Below, in pieces: positions 3,166 to 34,079 of a DNA stretch of 64,000 nt. The notes below the pieces were generated by a model that was given only the letters and a program-made list of their open reading frames with translations, had not been told where the DNA came from and searched no databases. The stretch is from the NCBI GenBank assembly GCA_034660395.1, contig JAYEJA010000040.1:4434-68433 (forward strand), given 5' to 3'. The stretch is from Actinomycetota bacterium (lineage in GTDB: Bacteria; Actinomycetota; Humimicrobiia; Humimicrobiales; Humimicrobiaceae). Numbering within the stretch: the stretch's first letter is position 1; each line of letters opens with the position of its first letter. The position numbers were made by a program, and so were the translations under genes.

Positions 3166-3573
3166 TTACTTTTCTTTAATAAGATATGTAAAATATCTAG
3201 GGTTTTTTATTGGTATATTTCTAAAAACTTTCAAGCGGAGAAGATGTTTATCGCCGGAAATAATCAAATCTGCATTTCCATTAACTGCGCATTCTAAAAT
3301 CATATTATCACTGGCATCGTCTTTAATAACGTTAAGTTTATCGCCAGTTTCAATAATCTCGCAGACATGAGAAACTCGTCTGACAAATTTATCTATATTA
3401 TGTTCAGGCCAGTAGAATTTGTTCCTGAGTATCCCGGCTGTTTCTCTGATTATTTCTCCTGAGATGATAAGCTTGATTTTACCTTTGATTGCAAGAGTTA
3501 AAATTTTATGGGGAATTCCTCTGAATAAGAGAGCGGATATATAGACATTTGAATCGAGAACTATTTTCAACAT
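3166..3573 (-). CDS. PIN-domain toxin (VapC-like; the 'PIN family toxin component' type)
   Basis: 135 aa. N-terminal IVLDSNVYISALL and acidic residues spaced as in PIN nucleases. Separated by 14 nt from the upstream RHH gene. Confidence 0.8.
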   Translation of the reverse strand: MLKIVLDSNVYISALLFRGIPHKILTLAIKGKIKLIISGEIIRETAGILRNKFYWPEHNIDKFVRRVSHVCEIIETGDKLNVIKDDASDNMILECAVNGNADLIISGDKHLLRLKVFRNIPIKNPRYFTYLIKEK

Positions 3574-5155: not shown

Positions 5156-6130
5156 TTGAAAATTTTAATAACCGGAATTGCAGGGTTTGTGGGTAAACAT
5201 CTCGCCTCTTTTCTTTTAAATAAAGGGGAAAATAACATTGCCGGTATCGACCTTGATTTTAAAAATTTTAATTCCGGCAGCGGTTTATCAGGGGAAATAG
5301 AGCTTATAAAAATTGACCTGACAGACAGCGACAGGGTTTTTGATGTTATTAAAAAGTTTAAACCGGATCAGATATACCACCTGGCAGCTCAGAGCTCGGT
5401 TGGCTATTCCTGGGAGAATCCGCTGGAAACTTTCAGGATTAATGTTTTCGGAGGAATAAACATTTTAGAAGGTATTAGAATGTATAACCCCGGCTGCAGA
5501 TTAATTGCAGCGTGCACGGCTGAGGAGTACGGTGAAACTGAAGATGAAGATAAAGCCATAGATGAAAATTTTAGTATTTATCCGGAGAATCCATATGCAG
5601 TAAGTAAATCTTCTCTTGATTTTCTTTGTTCAATTTATTATAAAGCATACGGGCTTGATGTATTCACAGCCAGGTCCTTTAATCTTACAGGGCCGGGACA
5701 GTCGGAAGGATTTGTCGCCTCCGACTTTGCAAAACAGGTGGCTCTGATAGAAGAGGGGATGCAGGAGCCTTTAATAGAGGTCGGGAACCTTGAAGCTTAC
5801 AGGGATTTCCTGGATGTAAGGGATGCCGTCAGGGCATACTATTATATTCTGGACAGGGGAAAAGGTAACCGGATTTATAATATATGCTCGGGTGAAAAGA
5901 GGAAAATATCGGAATTGCTGGATATGCTTTTATCCATGAGTAAAAAAGATGGTATTGAGGTAAAAATTGACAGGAGCAAGTTCAGGGCGCTTGATGTCAG
6001 GATAATGTACGGGAGTAATAGGAAATTAAGGGAGCATACTGAATGGAGCCCGGATTATTCTATTGAAGATTCACTGGGGGATATACTTGATTACTGGAGA
6101 CAAAAAATTATTCAGGCAAAAAATGAATGA
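5156..6130 (+). CDS. rmd: NAD-dependent epimerase/dehydratase, Rmd-like (GDP-4-keto-6-deoxy-D-mannose reductase, for GDP-D-rhamnose)
   Basis: ITGIAGFVGKHL Rossmann motif. YxxxK. Strong similarity as I recall it to Rmd (FVASDFAKQVALIEEGMQEPLIEVGNLEAYRDFLDVRD). gmd is two genes downstream. Confidence 0.6.
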   Translation: MKILITGIAGFVGKHLASFLLNKGENNIAGIDLDFKNFNSGSGLSGEIELIKIDLTDSDRVFDVIKKFKPDQIYHLAAQSSVGYSWENPLETFRINVFGGINILEGIRMYNPGCRLIAACTAEEYGETEDEDKAIDENFSIYPENPYAVSKSSLDFLCSIYYKAYGLDVFTARSFNLTGPGQSEGFVASDFAKQVALIEEGMQEPLIEVGNLEAYRDFLDVRDAVRAYYYILDRGKGNRIYNICSGEKRKISELLDMLLSMSKKDGIEVKIDRSKFRALDVRIMYGSNRKLREHTEWSPDYSIEDSLGDILDYWRQKIIQAKNE

Positions 6131-6145: not shown

Positions 6146-7261
6146 TTGAAAGCAGTAATACTGGCAGGCGGGGAAGGAACAAGACTTCGCCCGATTACTT
6201 TTTTAAATCCAAAACCCATGCTGCCCCTTGCAAACAGGCCTTTTATGGAGAATTTTGTTCTGTGGCTTAGATCCCATGATATAAAGGATATAATTTTTTC
6301 GGCGGGGTATCTGTCGGAGGTTTTTAAAGACTATTTCGGGGACGGCAGAAAGTTTGGCCTAAAAATAACTTTTGTTGAGGAAGACAGGCCGCTTGGTACC
6401 TGCGGCGGAGTAAAAAATGTGGAAAAATACCTCGGCAGCGAAAGTTTTCTGGTGTTTAACGGTGATATACTTTCTTCGCTTAATCTGGCCAGGCTAGTGG
6501 CTTTTCATAAGAAAAAAAAGGCGGATGTAACTATCTCTGTAACCGGAACCGATGACCCTTCATCTTACGGCCTGGTGCCTGTTGACGGAGAGGGGAGGAT
6601 TACAGGGTTCCTTGAAAAGCCGAAGGAGGATGAGATTGTTACCGACCTGGTTAATGCCGGCATTTATGTTATGGAGCCCGGTGTGCTGAAAAATGTACCC
6701 GCGGGTGAGAAATATTCCTTTGAAAGGCAGCTTTTCCCCGCGCTCCTGGAAAAGGGTCACAGGATTTTCGGTTATGTTTTTGATTCTTACTGGCTGGATG
6801 TGGGAACGCCGCAGAAATATCTAATGGCTAACCGGGACGTACTGCATAAAAAGATAGTTTTTAAATTTCCCTGCAGCGAGGTGATGAAGGGCATATATGC
6901 AGGAACGGGTACCGGTTATTCAAAGAGTAATTTCGTATCGGGGCCCGTAATTATTGGCAATGGAACAAAAATAGAAAAAAATGCTAAAATAATGCCCCTG
7001 ACCGTAATAGGCGATAACTGCAGTGTATCGGAAGGCACGGAAATATCGGAGAGTGTTATTTTTAACAACTGTAAAATAGGGAAAAAATGTAATATAAAAA
7101 GGGCAATAATTTCAAATAATGTGGTTATCGGAGATAATGTTACGATAGAGGACTATTCGGTAATCGGTGATAACAGCATCATAGGCAAAAATAATATTTT
7201 AAAAAAAGGCATTAAGATTAACATAAATTCAAATGTTTCGGAGGACAGTATTAACTTCTGA
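6146..7261 (+). CDS. Mannose-1-phosphate guanylyltransferase-like nucleotidyltransferase with a C-terminal left-handed beta-helix
   Basis: N-terminal AVILAGGEGTRLRPIT..KPMLP NDP-sugar pyrophosphorylase motif. C-terminal hexapeptide repeats (IGDN..). Confidence 0.75.
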   Translation: MKAVILAGGEGTRLRPITFLNPKPMLPLANRPFMENFVLWLRSHDIKDIIFSAGYLSEVFKDYFGDGRKFGLKITFVEEDRPLGTCGGVKNVEKYLGSESFLVFNGDILSSLNLARLVAFHKKKKADVTISVTGTDDPSSYGLVPVDGEGRITGFLEKPKEDEIVTDLVNAGIYVMEPGVLKNVPAGEKYSFERQLFPALLEKGHRIFGYVFDSYWLDVGTPQKYLMANRDVLHKKIVFKFPCSEVMKGIYAGTGTGYSKSNFVSGPVIIGNGTKIEKNAKIMPLTVIGDNCSVSEGTEISESVIFNNCKIGKKCNIKRAIISNNVVIGDNVTIEDYSVIGDNSIIGKNNILKKGIKININSNVSEDSINF

Positions 7262-24465: not shown

Positions 24466-24815
24466 GGGGGCGACCTGGGTTCGACGGGGATAGGTTGAGC
24501 TTAAGTTGCAAGCCGAGTATCAGAACTCGTAAATAACTGAACCATAAATAAACGCTAATAATAAATTAGCATTAGCAGCCTAATTTAAGCTGCTACGTCT
24601 GTGAAGGGTTTCCTGCGCTTTTCAACAGGCGCCGATTAGCAGGATACTCCGGCATGATTTGTCTGCAGTAGTGCCGGGGGAAGTTTTATGCGGACTGGCT
24701 TTTTTAACCGTGTCCATACGGGTGAAAAAGTGAGAATTTAAAATGTGGACTAAGCTTGTAGATATTTAAGTGGCGATGTCTTCGGACGCGGGTTCGATTC
24801 CCGCCGCCTCCACCA
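24466..24815 (+). ncRNA. ssrA: tmRNA (transfer-messenger RNA)
   Basis: 5' GGGGGCGACCTGGGTTCGACGGGG. 3' GGACGCGGGTTCGATTCCCGCCGCCTCCACCA (tRNA-Ala-like T-arm and acceptor with encoded CCA). Internal tag ORF GCT AAT AAT AAA TTA GCA TTA GCA GCC TAA, giving (A)NNKLALAA. Confidence 0.9.
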
Positions 24816-25134: not shown

Positions 25135-26877
25135 ATGAAAGGAAAAGCGGTAAACAGGGGTATTGAAAATGTAAGGAAAAAGGGAAGCAGGGTTTTTAGT
25201 GAAGGAGCTCATATGCTTCCGGGAGTATCACTTATGCTTGCCGAGGGCGTTATTGGCTCCTTAAAAGACATAAAAAAACCTTTTATTACCATAGTAAATT
25301 CTTATACAACACAGATTCCAGGCCATGCTCATCTTGATAAGCTGGGCGCTGTTTTAAAGGAAGAACTGGAGAAAAGCGGTGTTAATGTATGGTACACGAA
25401 TATAGGTGGAGCAGTTTGTGATGGAATAGCCATGGGGCACTTTGGGATGAAATACTCCCTGCCCTCAAGGGAATTAATTACCGACCAGATCGAAACCATT
25501 ATTGGCGCGCATCCGCCCGATGCGTGGATAGGGCTGGGTAACTGCGATAAGATTGTTCCTGCGATGTATAATGCCATGGTCAGGATTAATATCCCATCCA
25601 TATATGTAAGCGGCGGCCCGATGCTATGTGGTGAAAATAATACTGATTTAATTTCGGTTTTTGAAGCCGTGGGAAGGTACAGCTCGGGGAAGATGAAGAA
25701 AAAGGAGCTGGAGAAGCTGGCTGAATATGCATGTCCCGGCTATGGAAGCTGTGCTGGAATGTTTACTGCAAATTCAATGAATAGCCTGGGAGAGGTGCTG
25801 GGCTTTGCCCTGCCCGGAAACGGCTCAATACCTGCAACAACGAGAATGAAGGGGGAAAGAAGGCAGTTTAAGATAAACCCGGATAGGATAAATCTTGTAA
25901 GGGAAGCGGCAGACAAGGTTATATATCTCGTGAAAAATAAGATAAGGCCGATGGATATCTTAAGCAGGAAATCCATTGATAATGCCTTTATTCTGGACCT
26001 TGCAATGGGCGGCTCGACAAATACCGTTTTGCACCTTCTGGCCCTGGCGCATGAAGCAGGTATCGGGTACAACCTTAATTACATTAACAGGCTGGCAAAA
26101 ACAACACCCAACGTGGTTAAGGTTTCACCTTCAAGGCCTGAAATTCACATGGAAGACATTAACAGAGTAGGAGGAATGGGTGCCATACTTAAAGCTGTTT
26201 ATGACAGCGGAAAATCAAAGCTTGATCTTGAGGCCGAAACTGTTTACGGGAAACTTGGCGATTATGTATTAAAATCTCCCTTACCTGACGGTGAAGTAAT
26301 CCGCACGGCGGAAAATGCCTTTTCTCCTGAAGGAGGTCTTGCAGTCCTTTTTGGAAATATAGCCAAAAATGGCTCCGTAGTTAAAACAAGCGGTGTAGAT
26401 GAGGATATGCTGAAGTTTGAAGGTAAGGCGCTTGTATACGATTCACAGGAGGAAGCGCTTAAAGCCATACTGGAAAATAAGGTTAAGGATGGGGATGTAG
26501 TGGTAATCCGCTATGAAGGCCCTAAAGGAGGTCCGGGGATGCAGGAGATGCTTTCTCCCACTGCGGCAATAAGGGGAGCAGATATAAAGGCGGCCCTTAT
26601 TACCGATGGGCGTTTTTCCGGTGGTACAAGGGGCCTGTGTATCGGTCACGTTTCCCCGGAAGCGGCAGGCGGCGGTGAAATAGGACTGATTAAAAAGGGT
26701 GATATAATTGAGATAGATGTTGGTAAAAATAAGATAAATGTAAGGGTTTCAGAAAAAGAGCTGAATGAAAGAAGAAAGAAGGCCGTACCTTTCAAGTCAA
26801 AGGTTAAGGGAGGCTGGCTGGCAAGATATTCAAAATTTGTGGAGAGCGCAGATAAGGGAGCTATTATGTCGCTCTGA
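25135..26877 (+). CDS. ilvD: Dihydroxy-acid dehydratase
   Basis: 580 aa. ILVD/EDD signatures CDKIVPAM and CPGYGSCAGMFTANSMN. SD GGGAG. Confidence 0.85.
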   Translation: MKGKAVNRGIENVRKKGSRVFSEGAHMLPGVSLMLAEGVIGSLKDIKKPFITIVNSYTTQIPGHAHLDKLGAVLKEELEKSGVNVWYTNIGGAVCDGIAMGHFGMKYSLPSRELITDQIETIIGAHPPDAWIGLGNCDKIVPAMYNAMVRINIPSIYVSGGPMLCGENNTDLISVFEAVGRYSSGKMKKKELEKLAEYACPGYGSCAGMFTANSMNSLGEVLGFALPGNGSIPATTRMKGERRQFKINPDRINLVREAADKVIYLVKNKIRPMDILSRKSIDNAFILDLAMGGSTNTVLHLLALAHEAGIGYNLNYINRLAKTTPNVVKVSPSRPEIHMEDINRVGGMGAILKAVYDSGKSKLDLEAETVYGKLGDYVLKSPLPDGEVIRTAENAFSPEGGLAVLFGNIAKNGSVVKTSGVDEDMLKFEGKALVYDSQEEALKAILENKVKDGDVVVIRYEGPKGGPGMQEMLSPTAAIRGADIKAALITDGRFSGGTRGLCIGHVSPEAAGGGEIGLIKKGDIIEIDVGKNKINVRVSEKELNERRKKAVPFKSKVKGGWLARYSKFVESADKGAIMSL

Positions 26878-26936: not shown

Positions 26937-27194
26937 ATGATTACGGTAAAAAAGGAAAACGATAATAAATTTCTGGTAACCGTAGAAGAAGGGGGCAGCA
27001 GTACGGAGCATGCCGTTAATCTGGATGATGAATATTACAGGGACCTGACGGGCGGTGAAATTGCGAGGGAGGAACTGATAAGGAAATCTTTTAAATTCCT
27101 ACTTGAAAGAGAACCCAAAGAATCCATACTCCCACAATTTAATTTAGGGATTTATATACTTATAAACACTAAATTAATTTATAATAAGTGTTAA
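26937..27194 (+). pseudogene. Small hypothetical gene whose 3' end is interrupted by the IS1595-family element. The native C-terminus resumes after 29939.
   Basis: The ORF reads through the IS left IR. Rejoining the flanks across the 8-bp TSD restores ...PQFNLNIIKSYFPEYEREIKI*, ending at 29990. Confidence 0.5.
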
Positions 27195-27201
27195 TAAGTA
27201 C

Positions 27202-27230
27202 TTGACAACACTATTATTTAGTGTTATTAT
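27202..27230 (+). promoter_or_regulatory. Sigma-70-type promoter of the transposase (TTGACA-17-TATTAT). A palindrome ACACTAttattTAGTGT fills the spacer. The -10 lies 6 nt from the ATG (leaderless).
   Basis: Read directly. The ACACTA/TAGTGT motif also forms the inner ends of both IRs and occurs at 27188..27193. Confidence 0.6.
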
Positions 27231-27236
27231 ATACTC

Positions 27237-28160
27237 ATGATGAACGATAAAAATAAAACAAAAGAAATGAGTATAATAGATTTTCTAACAAAAAGATTTC
27301 CGGATGAGGAAACAGCAGTAGATTTTTTTGCTAAAAAGCGTTGGGGTAACAAAATTACCTGTCCTTATTGTGGAAGTAGTAAAGTATATCACGTAAAAGG
27401 AAATCAACCATATAAATGTGGAAATTGCAACTTTAAATTTACAGTAAAGACAGGTACAATAATGGAAGGTAGCCACATAAAAGTAAGGACTTGGTTATTA
27501 GCAATGTACATTATGGGAACAACACGGAAAGGTATATCTTCTATTCAGCTTGCAAAACAACTTGGAGTAACCCAAAAGACAGCTTGGTATATGGCACATA
27601 GAATAAGAGAAGCTTGTAATAATTATGAGAAGATGAAAGGTATTATAGAAGTAGATGAGGCATATTTCGGTGGAAAAGAAAAAAACAAACATCATAGCAA
27701 AAAATATAACAAAGGACGCGGGGTTGCTAATAAAACAGCGGTTGCTGGATTAAAAGAGAGAAATGGAAAGTTTATGGCAAGGGTTTTAAAAGATACAAGT
27801 TCTTATACGTTGCAGGGTTTAATCCAAAAGAATGTAGTACCAAATTCAGCAGTATTTACTGATGATTTTCTATCATATATTGGATTGGAAAATAAAGGAT
27901 TTAAACATCAATCGGTAAAACATAGTGCTAATGAATATGTGGATGGCATAGCTCATACAAATGAGATTGAAAGCTTTTGGGCTCTGTTAAAGCGTGGTGT
28001 ATATGGAACATATCATTTTGTTAGTGTAAAACACTTACAACGCTATGTAAATGAATTCTGTTTTAGGGCAAACAATGGCAATACGGCATTATCTTTTGTG
28101 GATGCTATTTGCTTAAAAGCAAATATGAAAAATATAAAATATAAGGAATTGATAGCTTAA
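27237..28160 (+). CDS. IS1595-family (ISXO2-like DDE) transposase
   Basis: N-terminal zinc finger CPYCGSSK..CGNCNF. Family-typical blocks EVDEAYFGGK, VFTDDFLSY, HTNEIESFWALLKR. Confidence 0.9.
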   Translation: MMNDKNKTKEMSIIDFLTKRFPDEETAVDFFAKKRWGNKITCPYCGSSKVYHVKGNQPYKCGNCNFKFTVKTGTIMEGSHIKVRTWLLAMYIMGTTRKGISSIQLAKQLGVTQKTAWYMAHRIREACNNYEKMKGIIEVDEAYFGGKEKNKHHSKKYNKGRGVANKTAVAGLKERNGKFMARVLKDTSSYTLQGLIQKNVVPNSAVFTDDFLSYIGLENKGFKHQSVKHSANEYVDGIAHTNEIESFWALLKRGVYGTYHFVSVKHLQRYVNEFCFRANNGNTALSFVDAICLKANMKNIKYKELIA

Positions 28161-28954
28161 TGGTAAAGAAACAAATAATAAAACCCATAGAAAAAGATTT
28201 TGATGAAATAGTGGAAAGTGTTGGTAAACATAATCCTAAAAACAGGAATAATGTTTTCTCAAATATAAGAAATATTACACAACCAACATTAGAACTTGCG
28301 GATGGGTTAAAACTAAATGAAAAACAGAAAATGGACGGATTACAGCTTTTAAAAATGCTTGATAATAAAAGTATACCGCTTGTATTTTTTGACCCGCAAT
28401 ACCGAACAATTCTTGATAAACAAAATTATGGTAACGAGGGCGAGGGTAGACAAAAAGCGAGAGTTAAATTACCACAAATGAAAGAAAAAACAATTAAGCA
28501 ATTTATAAGAGAAATTGAGAGAATACTTATACCAAGTGGTCATTTAATGCTTTGGGTTGATAAATTTATAATTTGCAGTGGTATACATATTTTGCTTGAA
28601 GGGTCGTCACTTCAGCTTGTAGATATGGTAACTTGGAACAAAAACAAAATGGGTATGGGTTATAGGACAAGACGCTACAGTGAACATCTTATTATACTCC
28701 AGAAATTACCAGTAAGAGCAAAAGGGGTATGGCGTATTCACGATATACCAGATGTATGGACTGAAAAAATAAACAATGGAGATAAAAAGAATTATGTTCA
28801 TCCCAAACCAGTGGGGTTACAAAAACGATTAATAGAAGCTGTTACAAATAAAAATGATGTAATTGTTGACCCTGCTGCTGGTGGTTATTCGATATTGAGG
28901 GCTGCTAATGAAGTTGGGCGTAACTTTTTGGGGTGTGATATTATAGATATTTAA
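28160..28954 (+). CDS. Beta-class N6-adenine/N4-cytosine DNA methyltransferase (pfam N6_N4_Mtase-like), translationally coupled to the transposase
   Basis: Motif IV-like FFDPQY precedes motif I VIVDPAAGGYS. Conserved WNKNKMGMGYRTRRYSEHLIILQK block. The start ATG overlaps the transposase stop (TAATG). Confidence 0.75.
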   Translation: MVKKQIIKPIEKDFDEIVESVGKHNPKNRNNVFSNIRNITQPTLELADGLKLNEKQKMDGLQLLKMLDNKSIPLVFFDPQYRTILDKQNYGNEGEGRQKARVKLPQMKEKTIKQFIREIERILIPSGHLMLWVDKFIICSGIHILLEGSSLQLVDMVTWNKNKMGMGYRTRRYSEHLIILQKLPVRAKGVWRIHDIPDVWTEKINNGDKKNYVHPKPVGLQKRLIEAVTNKNDVIVDPAAGGYSILRAANEVGRNFLGCDIIDI

Positions 28955-29027
28955 AAGCTTGACATACACACTTTAATAATAGTAGAATTAAATTCAGAAA
29001 GTTATAGGGAGACAACCTATGAATCTG

Positions 29028-29061
29028 GGGCAATACTTAATTGGATTGCCCTTTTTCTTTT
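29028..29061 (+). terminator. Rho-independent terminator after the transposase-MTase transcript
   Basis: GGGCAAT-acttaattgg-ATTGCCC stem-loop followed by TTTTTCTTTT. Confidence 0.65.
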
Positions 29062-29150
29062 GGTGCGGATGGTGGGACTCGAACCCACACGAACCTATCG
29101 GCTCAACAGGGAGACAACCTATCGCGTCTACCAATTCCGCCACACCCGCA
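29061..29150 (-). tRNA. tRNA-like sequence (class II, Leu-type D-arm and long variable arm) with an aberrant anticodon loop. Probably a pseudo-tRNA or a captured tRNA fragment.
   Basis: Reverse complement is GCGGGTGTGGCGGAATTGGTAGACGCG-ATAGG-TTGTCTC-CCTGT-TGAGCCGATAGGTTCGT-GTGGGTTCGAGTCCCAC-CATCCGCACCA. Acceptor, D-, T- and variable arms are intact. The anticodon loop TTGTCTC has a pyrimidine at position 37 and an apparent anticodon GTC, which is inconsistent with a class II tRNA. Confidence 0.45.
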
Positions 29151-29216
29151 TAAATAGTAAATTTAATTCTATCATACTAAATTGTTATAATAAATAAATT
29201 ACAGTATAATAAGTAT

Positions 29217-29909
29217 ATGGCACTAATAGAAAAAGCCCAGGGACGTAAAGTAGACCAATCACCAAGTGGGTATACTCGCTTGTTTGGTATTTCCACGCTG
29301 GGAAATTTAATAAGTAAAGTACACGCAGCATGTATATCTGCGGGAACTGAACTTGAAAGATTTATTTGGGAAAGAGTAAACCAGATAAGCGACCTTGATA
29401 AATTTATAACAGAAACATTGCATAAAAAAGAAGACAGTGGAAAAATATGGGTTGCTATCAAAAGACAGATTAAACAATCAAAAACAATTAATTCAAAATA
29501 TGAACCAGATTTTATCGCTTTTGATTTAAAATTAAGAATGTGCTACGTCATTGAAGTAAAAGACGGAGACCAATTTGATACAAAAAAAGCAAGCGGTGAA
29601 CATAACACACTCCATAATTTTACAAATGATATTTCACACGACTTACCTTTTTCAACAAGAATTTTCATGTGTTGTTTTCATGCAAGAAATATAGAGGAAA
29701 TGTATATTGGTTTGAAAGGTAAATTTTCTAAAGATGAATTAATGACAGGGAAGGATTTATGCTTACTTCTTGGTATAGATTATGATGAAATTATTAAAAT
29801 ACGTACAAGTGACCAGCAGAGAAACCTTGATTACTTTATAAATAGTTTGTTATATATAGATACTATCAAAAATATGATTAAGAAAAGATTAGGCATATTT
29901 AAGATTTAG
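29217..29909 (+). CDS. PD-(D/E)xK nuclease-fold protein, a candidate type II restriction endonuclease partner of the MTase. Its stop codon lies inside the IRR.
   Basis: ..KYEPDFIAFDLKLRMCYVIEVKDGD.. has a PD...(E)VK spacing typical of PD-(D/E)xK nucleases. Leaderless promoter TTGTTA-17-TATAAT-6-ATG at 29182..29216. Confidence 0.5.
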   Translation: MALIEKAQGRKVDQSPSGYTRLFGISTLGNLISKVHAACISAGTELERFIWERVNQISDLDKFITETLHKKEDSGKIWVAIKRQIKQSKTINSKYEPDFIAFDLKLRMCYVIEVKDGDQFDTKKASGEHNTLHNFTNDISHDLPFSTRIFMCCFHARNIEEMYIGLKGKFSKDELMTGKDLCLLLGIDYDEIIKIRTSDQQRNLDYFINSLLYIDTIKNMIKKRLGIFKI

Positions 29910-30043
29910 TGTTTATAAGTATATAAATCCCTTAATTTAAATATAATTAAAAGTTATTTTCCCGAATATGAAAGGGAAATAAAAATATAATAAAAAGATA
30001 AAAAGGTATTTATATTTACACCTGTGGGAAAAGGAGGGAATAA

Positions 30044-33295: not shown

Positions 33296-33374
33296 CGGGG
33301 TGTAGCGCAGTTTGGTTTAGCGCACCTGCTTTGGGAGCAGGGGGTCGGAGGTTCAAATCCTCTCACCCCGACCA
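33296..33374 (+). tRNA. tRNA-Pro(TGG)
   Basis: CGGGGTG acceptor, anticodon loop CTTTGGGAG, T-arm GGTTCAAATCC, CCA encoded. Confidence 0.85.
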
Positions 33375-33380
33375 GTACGG

Positions 33381-33456
33381 GCGGGAATAGCTCAATTGGT
33401 AGAGCGTCAGCCTTCCAAGCTGAAGGTCGCGGGTTCGATCCCCGTTTCCCGCTCCA
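33381..33456 (+). tRNA. tRNA-Gly(TCC)
   Basis: GCGGGAATAGCTCAATTGGTAGAGC, anticodon loop CTTCCAA, CCA encoded. Confidence 0.85.
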
Positions 33457-33501
33457 ATTTTTTGAAAAAAAATTATTTGGCATAATGTTTTATGCGATTT
33501 T

Positions 33502-33578
<77 letters not shown>

Positions 33579-33694
33579 GAAATAAAGGCCGGAAGCGGAT
33601 ATGCCGCCTGGCAGGGGTATTGATTGGTTCTGGCAAATTTTTATACCGTATTATAAGTAAGGTATAGGTTGTATAATTTATTTGAAAATTATAT

Positions 33695-33771
33695 GGTGAG
33701 AATAGCTCAGCTGGCAGAGCACAGGATTGTGGATCCTGGGGTCGCGGGTTCGATCCCCGTTTCTCACCCCA
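33695..33771 (+). tRNA. tRNA-His(GTG) with an extra 5' G(-1)
   Basis: G-GTGAGAATAGCTCAGCTGG.., anticodon loop TTGTGGA. Confidence 0.85.
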
Positions 33772-33785
33772 TATTTTTTAGTTTT

Positions 33786-33862
33786 GCGCCTGTAGCTCAG
33801 CTGGATAGAGCGTCGGACTTCGAATCCGTGCGTCGGGGGTTCGAATCCCTCCAGGCGCGCCA
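33786..33862 (+). tRNA. tRNA-Arg(TCG)
   Basis: Same backbone as the Arg(TCT) gene, with anticodon loop CTTCGAA. Confidence 0.8.
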
Positions 33863-33907
33863 TATATAATTTAGAGAAGCCGGTATAGCCGGGTTTAGGA
33901 TGTAAAT

Positions 33908-33983
33908 GGGCCGTTAGCTCAGCTGGTAGAGCACCTGACTCTTAATCAGGGTGTCACAGGTTCGATCCCTGTACGGCTCACCA
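33908..33983 (+). tRNA. tRNA-Lys(CTT)
   Basis: GGGCCGTTAGCTCAGCTGGTAGAGC, anticodon loop CTCTTAA. Confidence 0.85.
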
Positions 33984-33992
33984 TTTTAATTG

Positions 33993-34079
33993 GCGAGAGT
34001 GGCGGAACTGGCAGACGCGCTAGACTTAGGATCTAGTGGGGTAAAACCTGTAGGGGTTCAAGTCCCCTCTCTCGCACCA
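33993..34079 (+). tRNA. tRNA-Leu(TAG), class II
   Basis: GCGAGAGTGGCGGAACTGGCAGACGC, anticodon loop CTTAGGA, long variable arm. Confidence 0.85.

Follow-up and report, generated by a model that had tools for sequence, protein, structure and literature searches.

Among described mobile elements, the closest counterpart of the system considered here is the insertion sequence (IS) IS1, whose promoter overlaps the left terminal inverted repeat (IRL) and is repressed by InsA, via a zinc-finger/helix-turn-helix (HTH) domain common to InsA and the transposase (PMC12428005). The present analysis concerns a stretch of 64,000 nucleotides (nt) from contig JAYEJA010000040.1 (assembly GCA_034660395.1), referred to below as the window, which carries an IS1595-family transposon of 2,785 base pairs (bp; 27147-29931) with type II restriction-modification (R-M) genes as cargo. 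We propose that the segment 27186-27236, located immediately upstream of the transposase gene, is probably a promoter-operator by which the transposase represses its own operon, a leaderless transposase-methylase unit, as in IS1.

A 2009 work by Siguier et al. reportedly links the IS1 and IS1595 families in its title, and the transposase of the window belongs to a lineage related to that of IS1. The two systems also share an N-terminal zinc finger and HTH module and a promoter that overlaps the end-recognition sequence. Unlike in IS1, the transposase of the window is encoded by a single open reading frame (ORF) with no frameshift, and there is no separate InsA-like repressor; the single ORF of 307 amino acids (aa) thus suggests a system that works like IS1 without the gene organisation of IS1. 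The putative operator is composed of dedicated internal copies of the end motif at the -35 and -10 hexamers, whereas in IS1 it is the terminal inverted repeat (IR) itself; the promoter is near-consensus, whereas that of IS1 is very weak; the messenger RNA (mRNA) is predicted to be leaderless, and autorepression in the window is likewise a prediction.

Other well-known systems share individual features with this locus. TnsB of Tn7 and the A protein of Mu bind several end-type sites within the transposon ends, and the TnsB sites overlap the tnsAB promoter. In the window, too, several copies of the end motif are found in one end and overlap the promoter of the transposase gene, but the transposase belongs to another family, and sites of the type described here move with the gene and not with the end. 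IS10 and IS50 are protected from outside transcription by fold-back inhibition; the aim, namely that no transposase be made from read-through transcripts, would be the same, but insulation here would come from the leaderless start, and the predicted fold leaves the ATG exposed. Bacterial leaderless mRNAs include lambda cI transcribed from P_RM, tetR of Tn1721 and many mycobacterial genes, with which the present locus shares a -10 hexamer ending 6 nt before the ATG, the lack of a Shine-Dalgarno (SD) sequence and a start codon that is always ATG in the 6-nt class of the family. To our knowledge, no IS lineage has been described in which the leaderless state of the transposase gene is conserved, nor has any experimental study dealt with regulation in the IS1595 family, and our literature search returned nothing relevant on IS1595 promoters or their regulation or on leaderless transposases.

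The promoter region and the two genes that follow it are composed of the following features:

27202..27207, plus strand: -35 hexamer TTGACA (promoter scan; 11/12 matches for the -35/-10 pair)
27208..27224, plus strand: 17-nt spacer ACACTATTATTTAGTGT, with the palindrome ACACTA-ttatt-TAGTGT
27222..27230, plus strand: extended -10, TG-n-TATTAT (TG at 27222-27223, TATTAT at 27225-27230)
27237..28160, plus strand: transposase gene, 307 aa (Pfam, NCBIfam; N-terminus aligned with homologues)
28160..28954, plus strand: type II DNA methyltransferase gene (Pfam N6_N4_Mtase; PADLOC MTase_II, E = 5e-78)

The arrangement TTGACA-17-TATTAT with TGn matches 11/12 positions of the sigma-70-type consensus, which may not be that of the host, and promoter-like sites with at least 11/12 matches occur only 5 times in 64 kilobases (kb) on both strands. 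Among ORFs of at least 100 aa, only the transposase gene, the restriction gene of the element and one weak 9/12 case have their ATG 5-7 nt behind a promoter-like site. The -10 hexamer ends 6 nt before the first of two ATG codons (27237 and 27240), and no SD core was seen upstream of either in the window. Because transcription usually starts 7 nt downstream of the -10, the start would coincide with the A of ATG 27237. A later start at Met11 is excluded as a conserved one, since this residue is not conserved as a start in the N-terminal alignment. We therefore predict that 27202-27230 is the transposase promoter, of sigma-70 type, and that the transposase mRNA is best read as leaderless or near-leaderless, a property that appears recurrent in the family and not an accident of this copy. 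An archaeal TATA/BRE reading of the promoter was ruled out, as the transfer-messenger RNA (tmRNA) gene makes the window bacterial. An outward promoter-like sequence, TTGTCA-16-TATTAT (10/12 matches; 27208-27181, minus strand), overlaps the transposase -35 and faces the IRL and the flanking host DNA.

The preliminary description of this locus had located the two hexamers and the 17-nt spacer at these same coordinates, which a direct reading of the sequence bears out, and the 6-nt gap to ATG 27237 without an SD is likewise present as described. It was also right in assigning the promoter to the transposase, but not in assigning it to the transposase alone: the ATG of the methylase overlaps the stop codon of the transposase (TAATG, 28158-28162), and the promoter is predicted to drive an operon of transposase and methylase, joined in most relatives by the restriction enzyme.

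Around this promoter we found several further copies of sequences from the terminal repeats of the element:

27147..27174, plus strand: IRL GGGATTTATATACTTATAAACACTAAAT, a perfect 28-bp match to 29904-29931
29904..29931, minus strand: right terminal inverted repeat (IRR), pairing perfectly with the IRL
27187..27200, minus strand: inverted IRR-like partial copy AGTGTTAATAAGTA, 13/14 bases of the IRR inner half (29908-29921)
27196..27213, plus strand: direct IR-like copy AAGTACTTGACAACACTA that carries the -35, similar both to the inner IR and to the IR consensus of the family, TATACTTGAC
27216..27225, minus strand: inverted 10-mer ATTTAGTGTT, matching the inner 10 nt of the IRL exactly in inverted orientation and identical to IRR 29904-29913
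27227..27235, plus strand: TTATATACT, which repeats the outer half of the IRL (27152-27160) in direct orientation

The left end is thus a mosaic of IR pieces. The direct copy is fused to the -35 (TACTTGACAACACTA, 27199-27213), the inverted 10-mer overlaps the first base of the -10, and the core AACACT/AGTGTT recurs at 27165(+), 27187(-), 27207(+), 27220(-) and 29908(-). Three extra core copies in the 62 nt between the IRL and the ATG correspond to P of about 5e-6 under a first-order Markov model with the element's own composition, and no other 62-nt segment of the 64 kb contains more than one copy. The spacer palindrome that had been pointed out earlier is real, its arms ACACTA (27208-27213) and TAGTGT (27219-27224) being exact reverse complements, and the hexamer does occur in both terminal repeats, as ACACTA at 27166-27171 in the IRL and as its complement at 29907-29912 in the IRR. 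The additional hexamer reported at 27188-27193 was placed out of register: these positions read GTGTTA, and the nearby 27186-27191 (AAGTGT) matches at 5/6 bases. As for the claim that the palindrome derives from the IR, the motifs do derive from it and co-vary with it, but the palindrome as a unit is not conserved; it is better regarded as the sum of two IR-derived sites, each of which is conserved separately.

Support for an operator function comes from comparison with close relatives for which DNA was available (n = 10; L001, L149-L151, L153-L156, L083 and L196; 59-82% transposase identity). The last of these was the one real relative recovered by a metagenome scan with the 14-mer GTACTTGACAACAC, in which the best 80 of 120 loci were checked. 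An upstream inverted TAGTGTT or TAGGGTT is kept in the close relatives and co-varies with the IR. Most members combine an IR of the form ...GTAACAC... with TAGTGTT-N-TACTTGACAACAC (TAGTGTT ... TTGACAACAC), and L154 and L155 combine ...AACCC... at both ends with TAGGGTT-N-TACTTGCAAACCCC (TAGGGTT ... TTGCAAACCCC), i.e. AACAC has changed to AACCC at all four sites together. Spacer motifs that co-vary with the terminal repeat are what a transposase operator overlapping the promoter predicts. The promoter block adjoins the gene even where cargo intervenes (540-690 nt from the IRL in L083 and L151, 118-129 nt in L150 and L154); it travels with the gene and not with the end, which argues for a promoter rather than an end function.

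Within this clade the -35 is TTGACA in 9/11 members, including the window, and TTGCAA in 2/11, with spacers of 16-17 nt. The distance from the -10 to the ATG (n = 11) is 6 nt in seven members, 8-9 nt in three and 30 nt in one, so that the near-leaderless geometry first noted in the window is kept in close relatives. The 3' arm of the palindrome is confined to the window and L001; the other close relatives, unlike these two, have the -10 TATACT within TATATACT and a 16-nt spacer, and in them the partner of the -35 copy is the upstream inverted copy, which corresponds to 27187-27192. A DnaA-box-like sequence, TTATCCACA or TTATCCACT, is found a few bases upstream of the inverted half-site in 7/11 members (L149, at 3436-3444; L150, L083, L154, L155, L156 and L196) and is absent from the window and L001.

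Homologues of the transposase number 7,645. No exact-protein record was found for the window transposase on look-up, and a metagenome scan with this single protein returned no relatives. The scan of a genome collection gave, among the matches listed, only relatives of at most 51% identity, which were used for family-wide tests and not for the close clade. Altogether 146 distant relatives (30-61% identity, many phyla) were considered among the matches listed, and the motif test covered 74 loci of the family with defined ends; the IR boundaries of distant loci were called automatically, and the counts ignore phylogeny. The distance from the -10 to the in-frame start is bimodal among the 146, with a sharp peak of 11 loci, all of which start with ATG, at precisely 6 nt, the same gap as in the window, and a second, broad class at 20-29 nt that leaves room for a ribosome-binding site.

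An inverted match of at least 6 bases between the inner 14 nt of the IRL and the interval from the IRL to the gene was found in 29/74 loci, compared with 10.7 +/- 2.7 for permuted pairings (maximum 18 in 500), 10 for reversed-only and 9 for complement-only controls, and 11.8 +/- 2.7 for resampled intervals; inverted 7-mers match in 15 loci versus about 3 expected. The inverted copy ends 1-4 nt inside the -10 hexamer in 10 loci, which represent at least six motif types (TAGTGTT, GCAAGT, GGCTAG, GGCTAT, GGGTAA, GGTTACT). L022 and others have a direct copy after the -35 as well, and hence a spacer palindrome of the same design as in the window with a different sequence. The usual family IR is GGGAATTATATACTTGAC, and 31/74 IRLs hold TTGAC, so that the -35 lies inside the IRL itself; the terminal repeats of the window clade have lost TTGAC, and it is the internal IR-like copy that carries it. 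Relatives without R-M cargo (L004, 1299 bp) display the same promoter design.

Two further groups deserve mention. An acidobacterial leaderless group (L009, L013, L036, L051 and L068) has another spacer palindrome, ACTCCC-TTGA-GGGAGT, between the -35 and the -10. Lineages with TTGACTCCC-type IRs (L007, L021, L025, L062 and L064) have an IRL ACTCCC complementary to the SD region of the transposase (AGGGAG or GGAG); read-through transcripts in these lineages may hide the ribosome-binding site, like in the fold-back inhibition of IS10 and IS50.

According to the model that we favour, transcription would start on the A of ATG 27237 or within 3 nt of ATG 27240 and yield a leaderless mRNA that encodes the transposase together with the methylase, whose translation is coupled to it. 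The transposase would bind the internal copies as it does the ends, via its N-terminal zinc ribbon (identified by Pfam) and an adjacent predicted HTH, and when bound it would exclude RNA polymerase from a strong promoter. Expression would be high on entry into a naive cell and would fall as the transposase accumulates. Only transcripts starting exactly at the element's own promoter would be translated, which would insulate the element from read-through from host genes, and the leaderless start would make expression independent of SD usage in the host.

Several points weigh against this autorepression model. The transcription start, the binding and the repression are all deduced from DNA sequence, and the host is probably an Omnitrophota-like bacterium, a kind for which the promoter consensus is uncharacterised. 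The co-variation within the close clade amounts essentially to one event, in the L154/L155 lineage, and relatedness inflates the counts. The 3' arm and the -10 differ between the window and L001 on one side and the other close relatives on the other, which indicates that the architecture is evolutionarily plastic, and the 8-9 nt between the -10 and the ATG in three close relatives suggest a leader of 1-3 nt rather than none. The inverted copy was found in only about 40% of the family loci at the thresholds used. Finally, the IR-like sites could serve transposition instead.

This last idea can be stated more specifically: the IR-like copies would be accessory subterminal sites for a left-end transposition complex, as in Mu and Tn7, and their overlap with the promoter would be incidental and have little regulatory effect. 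The copies do share the end motif and co-vary with it, they are phased by about two helical turns in the window, L001 and L149 (with cores beginning at 19, 41 and 61 nt from the tip), and they are found at the left end only. Nevertheless, the block adjoins the gene and not the end, even in the four relatives where it lies more than 100 nt from the IRL, and distant lineages position the inverted copy with respect to the -10 with a precision of 1-4 nt, for which an assembly site would have no reason; we regard a purely transpositional role as unlikely. Somewhat harder to accept is that the promoter is real but the motifs are leftovers from an ancient duplication of the left end, bound by no protein today. 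The TTGAC inside the IR, which makes the -35 a part of the IRL in 31/74 of the family IRLs, and the retention of TTGAC by the inner copy after its loss from the terminal IRs of this clade are what such a history would leave behind. However, relics should drift independently of the ends, whereas in L154 and L155 the change affected all four sites at once, a matching inverted copy has been kept at the -10 in at least six motif types, and composition-matched controls are about three-fold lower.

The inverted repeats could also act in RNA, with read-in transcripts folding so as to terminate or to hide the start codon, as in IS10 and IS50. The read-through RNA 27147-27256 indeed folds better than shuffled sequences (-18.4 kcal/mol, z = -2.4), and the IRL-SD complementarity of the TTGACTCCC lineages is of the kind that such folding would use. 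We consider this mechanism improbable for the window, as the ATG is unpaired in both the minimum-free-energy and the centroid folds of 27147-27256 and 27186-27250, the stems are not followed by a U-tract, in relatives with a leader it is the -10, rather than the ribosome-binding site, that holds the inverted copy, and the direct copy at the -35 would be left unexplained. There is very little to recommend the palindrome as an operator of the R-M cargo, bound by a controller protein or by the methylase: although the methylase, too, is under this promoter, with its ATG overlapping the stop codon of the transposase, the element contains no controller ORF, cargo-less relatives such as L004 have the same architecture, and the motif is that of the transposon ends. 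As regards mere chance resemblance, the region is AT-rich and promoter-like sites are common in it (23 found versus 16.6 expected), but the clustering of the motif and the conservation of these features in relatives of 59-82% identity and across phyla make it the least credible explanation of all, and the comparative data already reject it.

An extension of the autorepression model is possible, albeit doubtful: the transposase might be the controller of a mobile R-M system, with the IR-derived operator in the role usually played by a C-protein. The operator would then sit on the sole promoter of the transposase-methylase operon (with the restriction enzyme included in most relatives), and entry into a naive cell would cause a burst of transposase and protective methylase, both of which would afterwards be throttled by the transposase. 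The leaderless start would make the unit independent of the host and could account for its dissemination among phyla and to phage genomes. In the lineage of the window, the inserted RNA module described below would provide an additional layer of control, based on RNA, by which the restriction gene is uncoupled. No ORF for a small HTH controller (C-protein) was found in the element.

The element is delimited by a target-site duplication and contains a third gene with a promoter-like site of its own:

27139..27146, strand not applicable: left copy of the 8-bp target-site duplication, TTAATTTA (the same 8-mer as at 29932-29939)
29932..29939, strand not applicable: right copy of the target-site duplication, TTAATTTA
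29182..29210, plus strand: promoter-like TTGTTA-17-TATAAT, ending 6 nt before the restriction-enzyme ATG, no SD
29217..29909, plus strand: type II restriction endonuclease gene, 230 aa (PADLOC REase_II, E = 4e-50, full length)

Perfect 28-bp inverted repeats are not expected by chance. The related genome L159, in which the neighbouring ilvD is 90% identical, has a single uninterrupted TTAATTTA and no element; this empty site indicates that 27147-29931 is a true transposition insertion, in the 3' end of a small ORF. Target duplications of 8 bp were found in eight relatives (one of them 7/8). The interrupted host ORF (26937-27194, 86 aa) has had its last 16 codons replaced by 15 codons from the transposon end; its transcription runs in the direction of the transposase gene and is likely to continue into the element.

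The transposase matches DDE_Tnp_IS1595 (PF12762, E = 4.9e-41) and Zn_ribbon_IS1595 (PF12760, E = 3e-11) in Pfam, as well as NF033547 (IS1595 family transposase, E = 2e-63) in NCBIfam, which also reports a weak IS1 match and a zinc domain common to IS1 and IS1595. It is a single ORF with no frameshift, and its homologues are all about 300 aa long. The ends of the element read GGGATTTAT in the window and GGGAATTAT in L001 and in most of 55 GGG-type relatives. We take the element to be a candidate member of the ISNwi1-like group with passenger genes (ISfinder classification; Siguier, Gagnevin and Chandler 2009), whose ISfinder end consensus is ggnnatTAT, a form that these ends would fit; with this group it shares the domains, the 8-bp AT-rich duplication, ends of the type GGGAnTTATATAC and a single transposase ORF accompanied by cargo.

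The transposase-methylase-endonuclease cassette is present in all close relatives whose contigs reach far enough (L196 was covered at its left end only), and in most of the clade the three genes form one tightly packed operon. We know of no description of a type II R-M operon as cargo of an IS1595-family element, although our literature searches were not aimed at that question. The 6-nt distance of TTGTTA-17-TATAAT from its ATG makes the restriction enzyme a second gene of the element with leaderless geometry, and the restriction gene of L001 has TATAAT 8 nt before its ATG. Several of the R-M-carrying IS1595 copies of the clade (window, L001, L149-L156 and L083) are found in phage-like contexts, together with terminase, peptidoglycan-binding and glucosaminidase genes.

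An insert of about 260 nt, present in the window and L001 only, lies between the methylase gene and the restriction gene. This RNA module comprises, in the window:

28959..29061, plus strand: putative small RNA or 3' end of the operon (promoter-like site, 15-mer, terminator)
29061..29149, minus strand: transfer RNA (tRNA)-like gene of class II shape, anticodon loop UUGUCUC, encoded CCA (ARAGORN; Rfam tRNA, 49.9 bits)

The tRNA-like gene has a long variable arm, a tRNA-Leu-like D-arm, A73 and an odd anticodon loop with U37. In its homologue in L001 (5822-5907, minus strand), compensatory changes in the acceptor and anticodon stems maintain the fold, and the anticodon is GGC versus GUC in the window. 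The putative small RNA starts from a promoter-like TTGACA-18-TAGAAT (28959-28988), convergent with the tRNA-like gene, contains a 15-mer, AGGGAGACAACCTAT (29006-29020), that is exactly complementary to the anticodon arm of the latter, and ends in a terminator hairpin (29028-34 / 29045-51) with a T-run (folding z = -3.8). The complementary 7 nt form a hairpin loop in the window, which would suit a loop-loop contact; in L001 (about 5715-5822) the counterpart is a 12-mer within a single-stranded 5' region, and its sequence has changed along with that of the tRNA-like gene there. As only two lineages are available, we treat the pairing of the putative small RNA with the tRNA-like molecule as a lead and not as a result. 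An ORF of 44 aa that begins at 29018 and runs antisense to the tRNA-like gene was rejected as a gene candidate, because L001 does not conserve it and the terminator interrupts it. Scans of viral contigs for further copies of the module yielded 103 matching stretches, and among 143 loci (L240 and above), which include these stretches, none had a relative of the transposase, the methylase or the restriction enzyme; a scan of viral contigs with the restriction enzyme recovered only one contig, which was already known.

Other members of the family carry ordinary-looking tRNA genes, namely Gln in L083 (652-725), Val in L048 (3702-3776) and Gln in L065 (4958-5032), and L015 contains a Ser tRNA (6484-6569), although the boundaries of that element are less certain, as its IR is 13 nt only. 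The cargo of L151 is a 178-aa ORF on the opposite strand (84-620). In L083, L048 and L151 the cargo is located between the IRL and the promoter block.

Outside the element, the window contains a tmRNA gene of ordinary type, with the tag ANNKLALAA, and seven clustered tRNA genes (24466-24815 and 33296-34079); the tmRNA indicates that the host is bacterial. The protein encoded by ilvD (25135-26877) is identical to one found under a metagenome-assembled genome labelled Actinomycetota, and its named relatives (72-83% identity) come from Omnitrophota, the PVC group and WOR-3. The ilvD homologues thus point to a host that is probably an Omnitrophota/PVC-like uncultivated bacterium, and the Actinomycetota label may be a binning error (the window has about 40% G+C).

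Self-repression by a transposase is a textbook principle, which makes the advance incremental; what appears to be new is a conserved, co-evolving operator design in an unstudied IS family, tied to a leaderless start and to the control of a mobile R-M operon. The comparative data provide a concrete operator model, for which natural variants of different specificity exist (AACAC, AACCC, TAGCC, TTACCC and others). A leaderless start, the same data suggest, may be a recurrent route by which a promiscuous element could gain expression in whatever host it enters, unaffected by read-through from the genes there. Since the same promoter is predicted to drive the R-M operon, the model would bear on how mobile restriction systems become safely established in a new cell.

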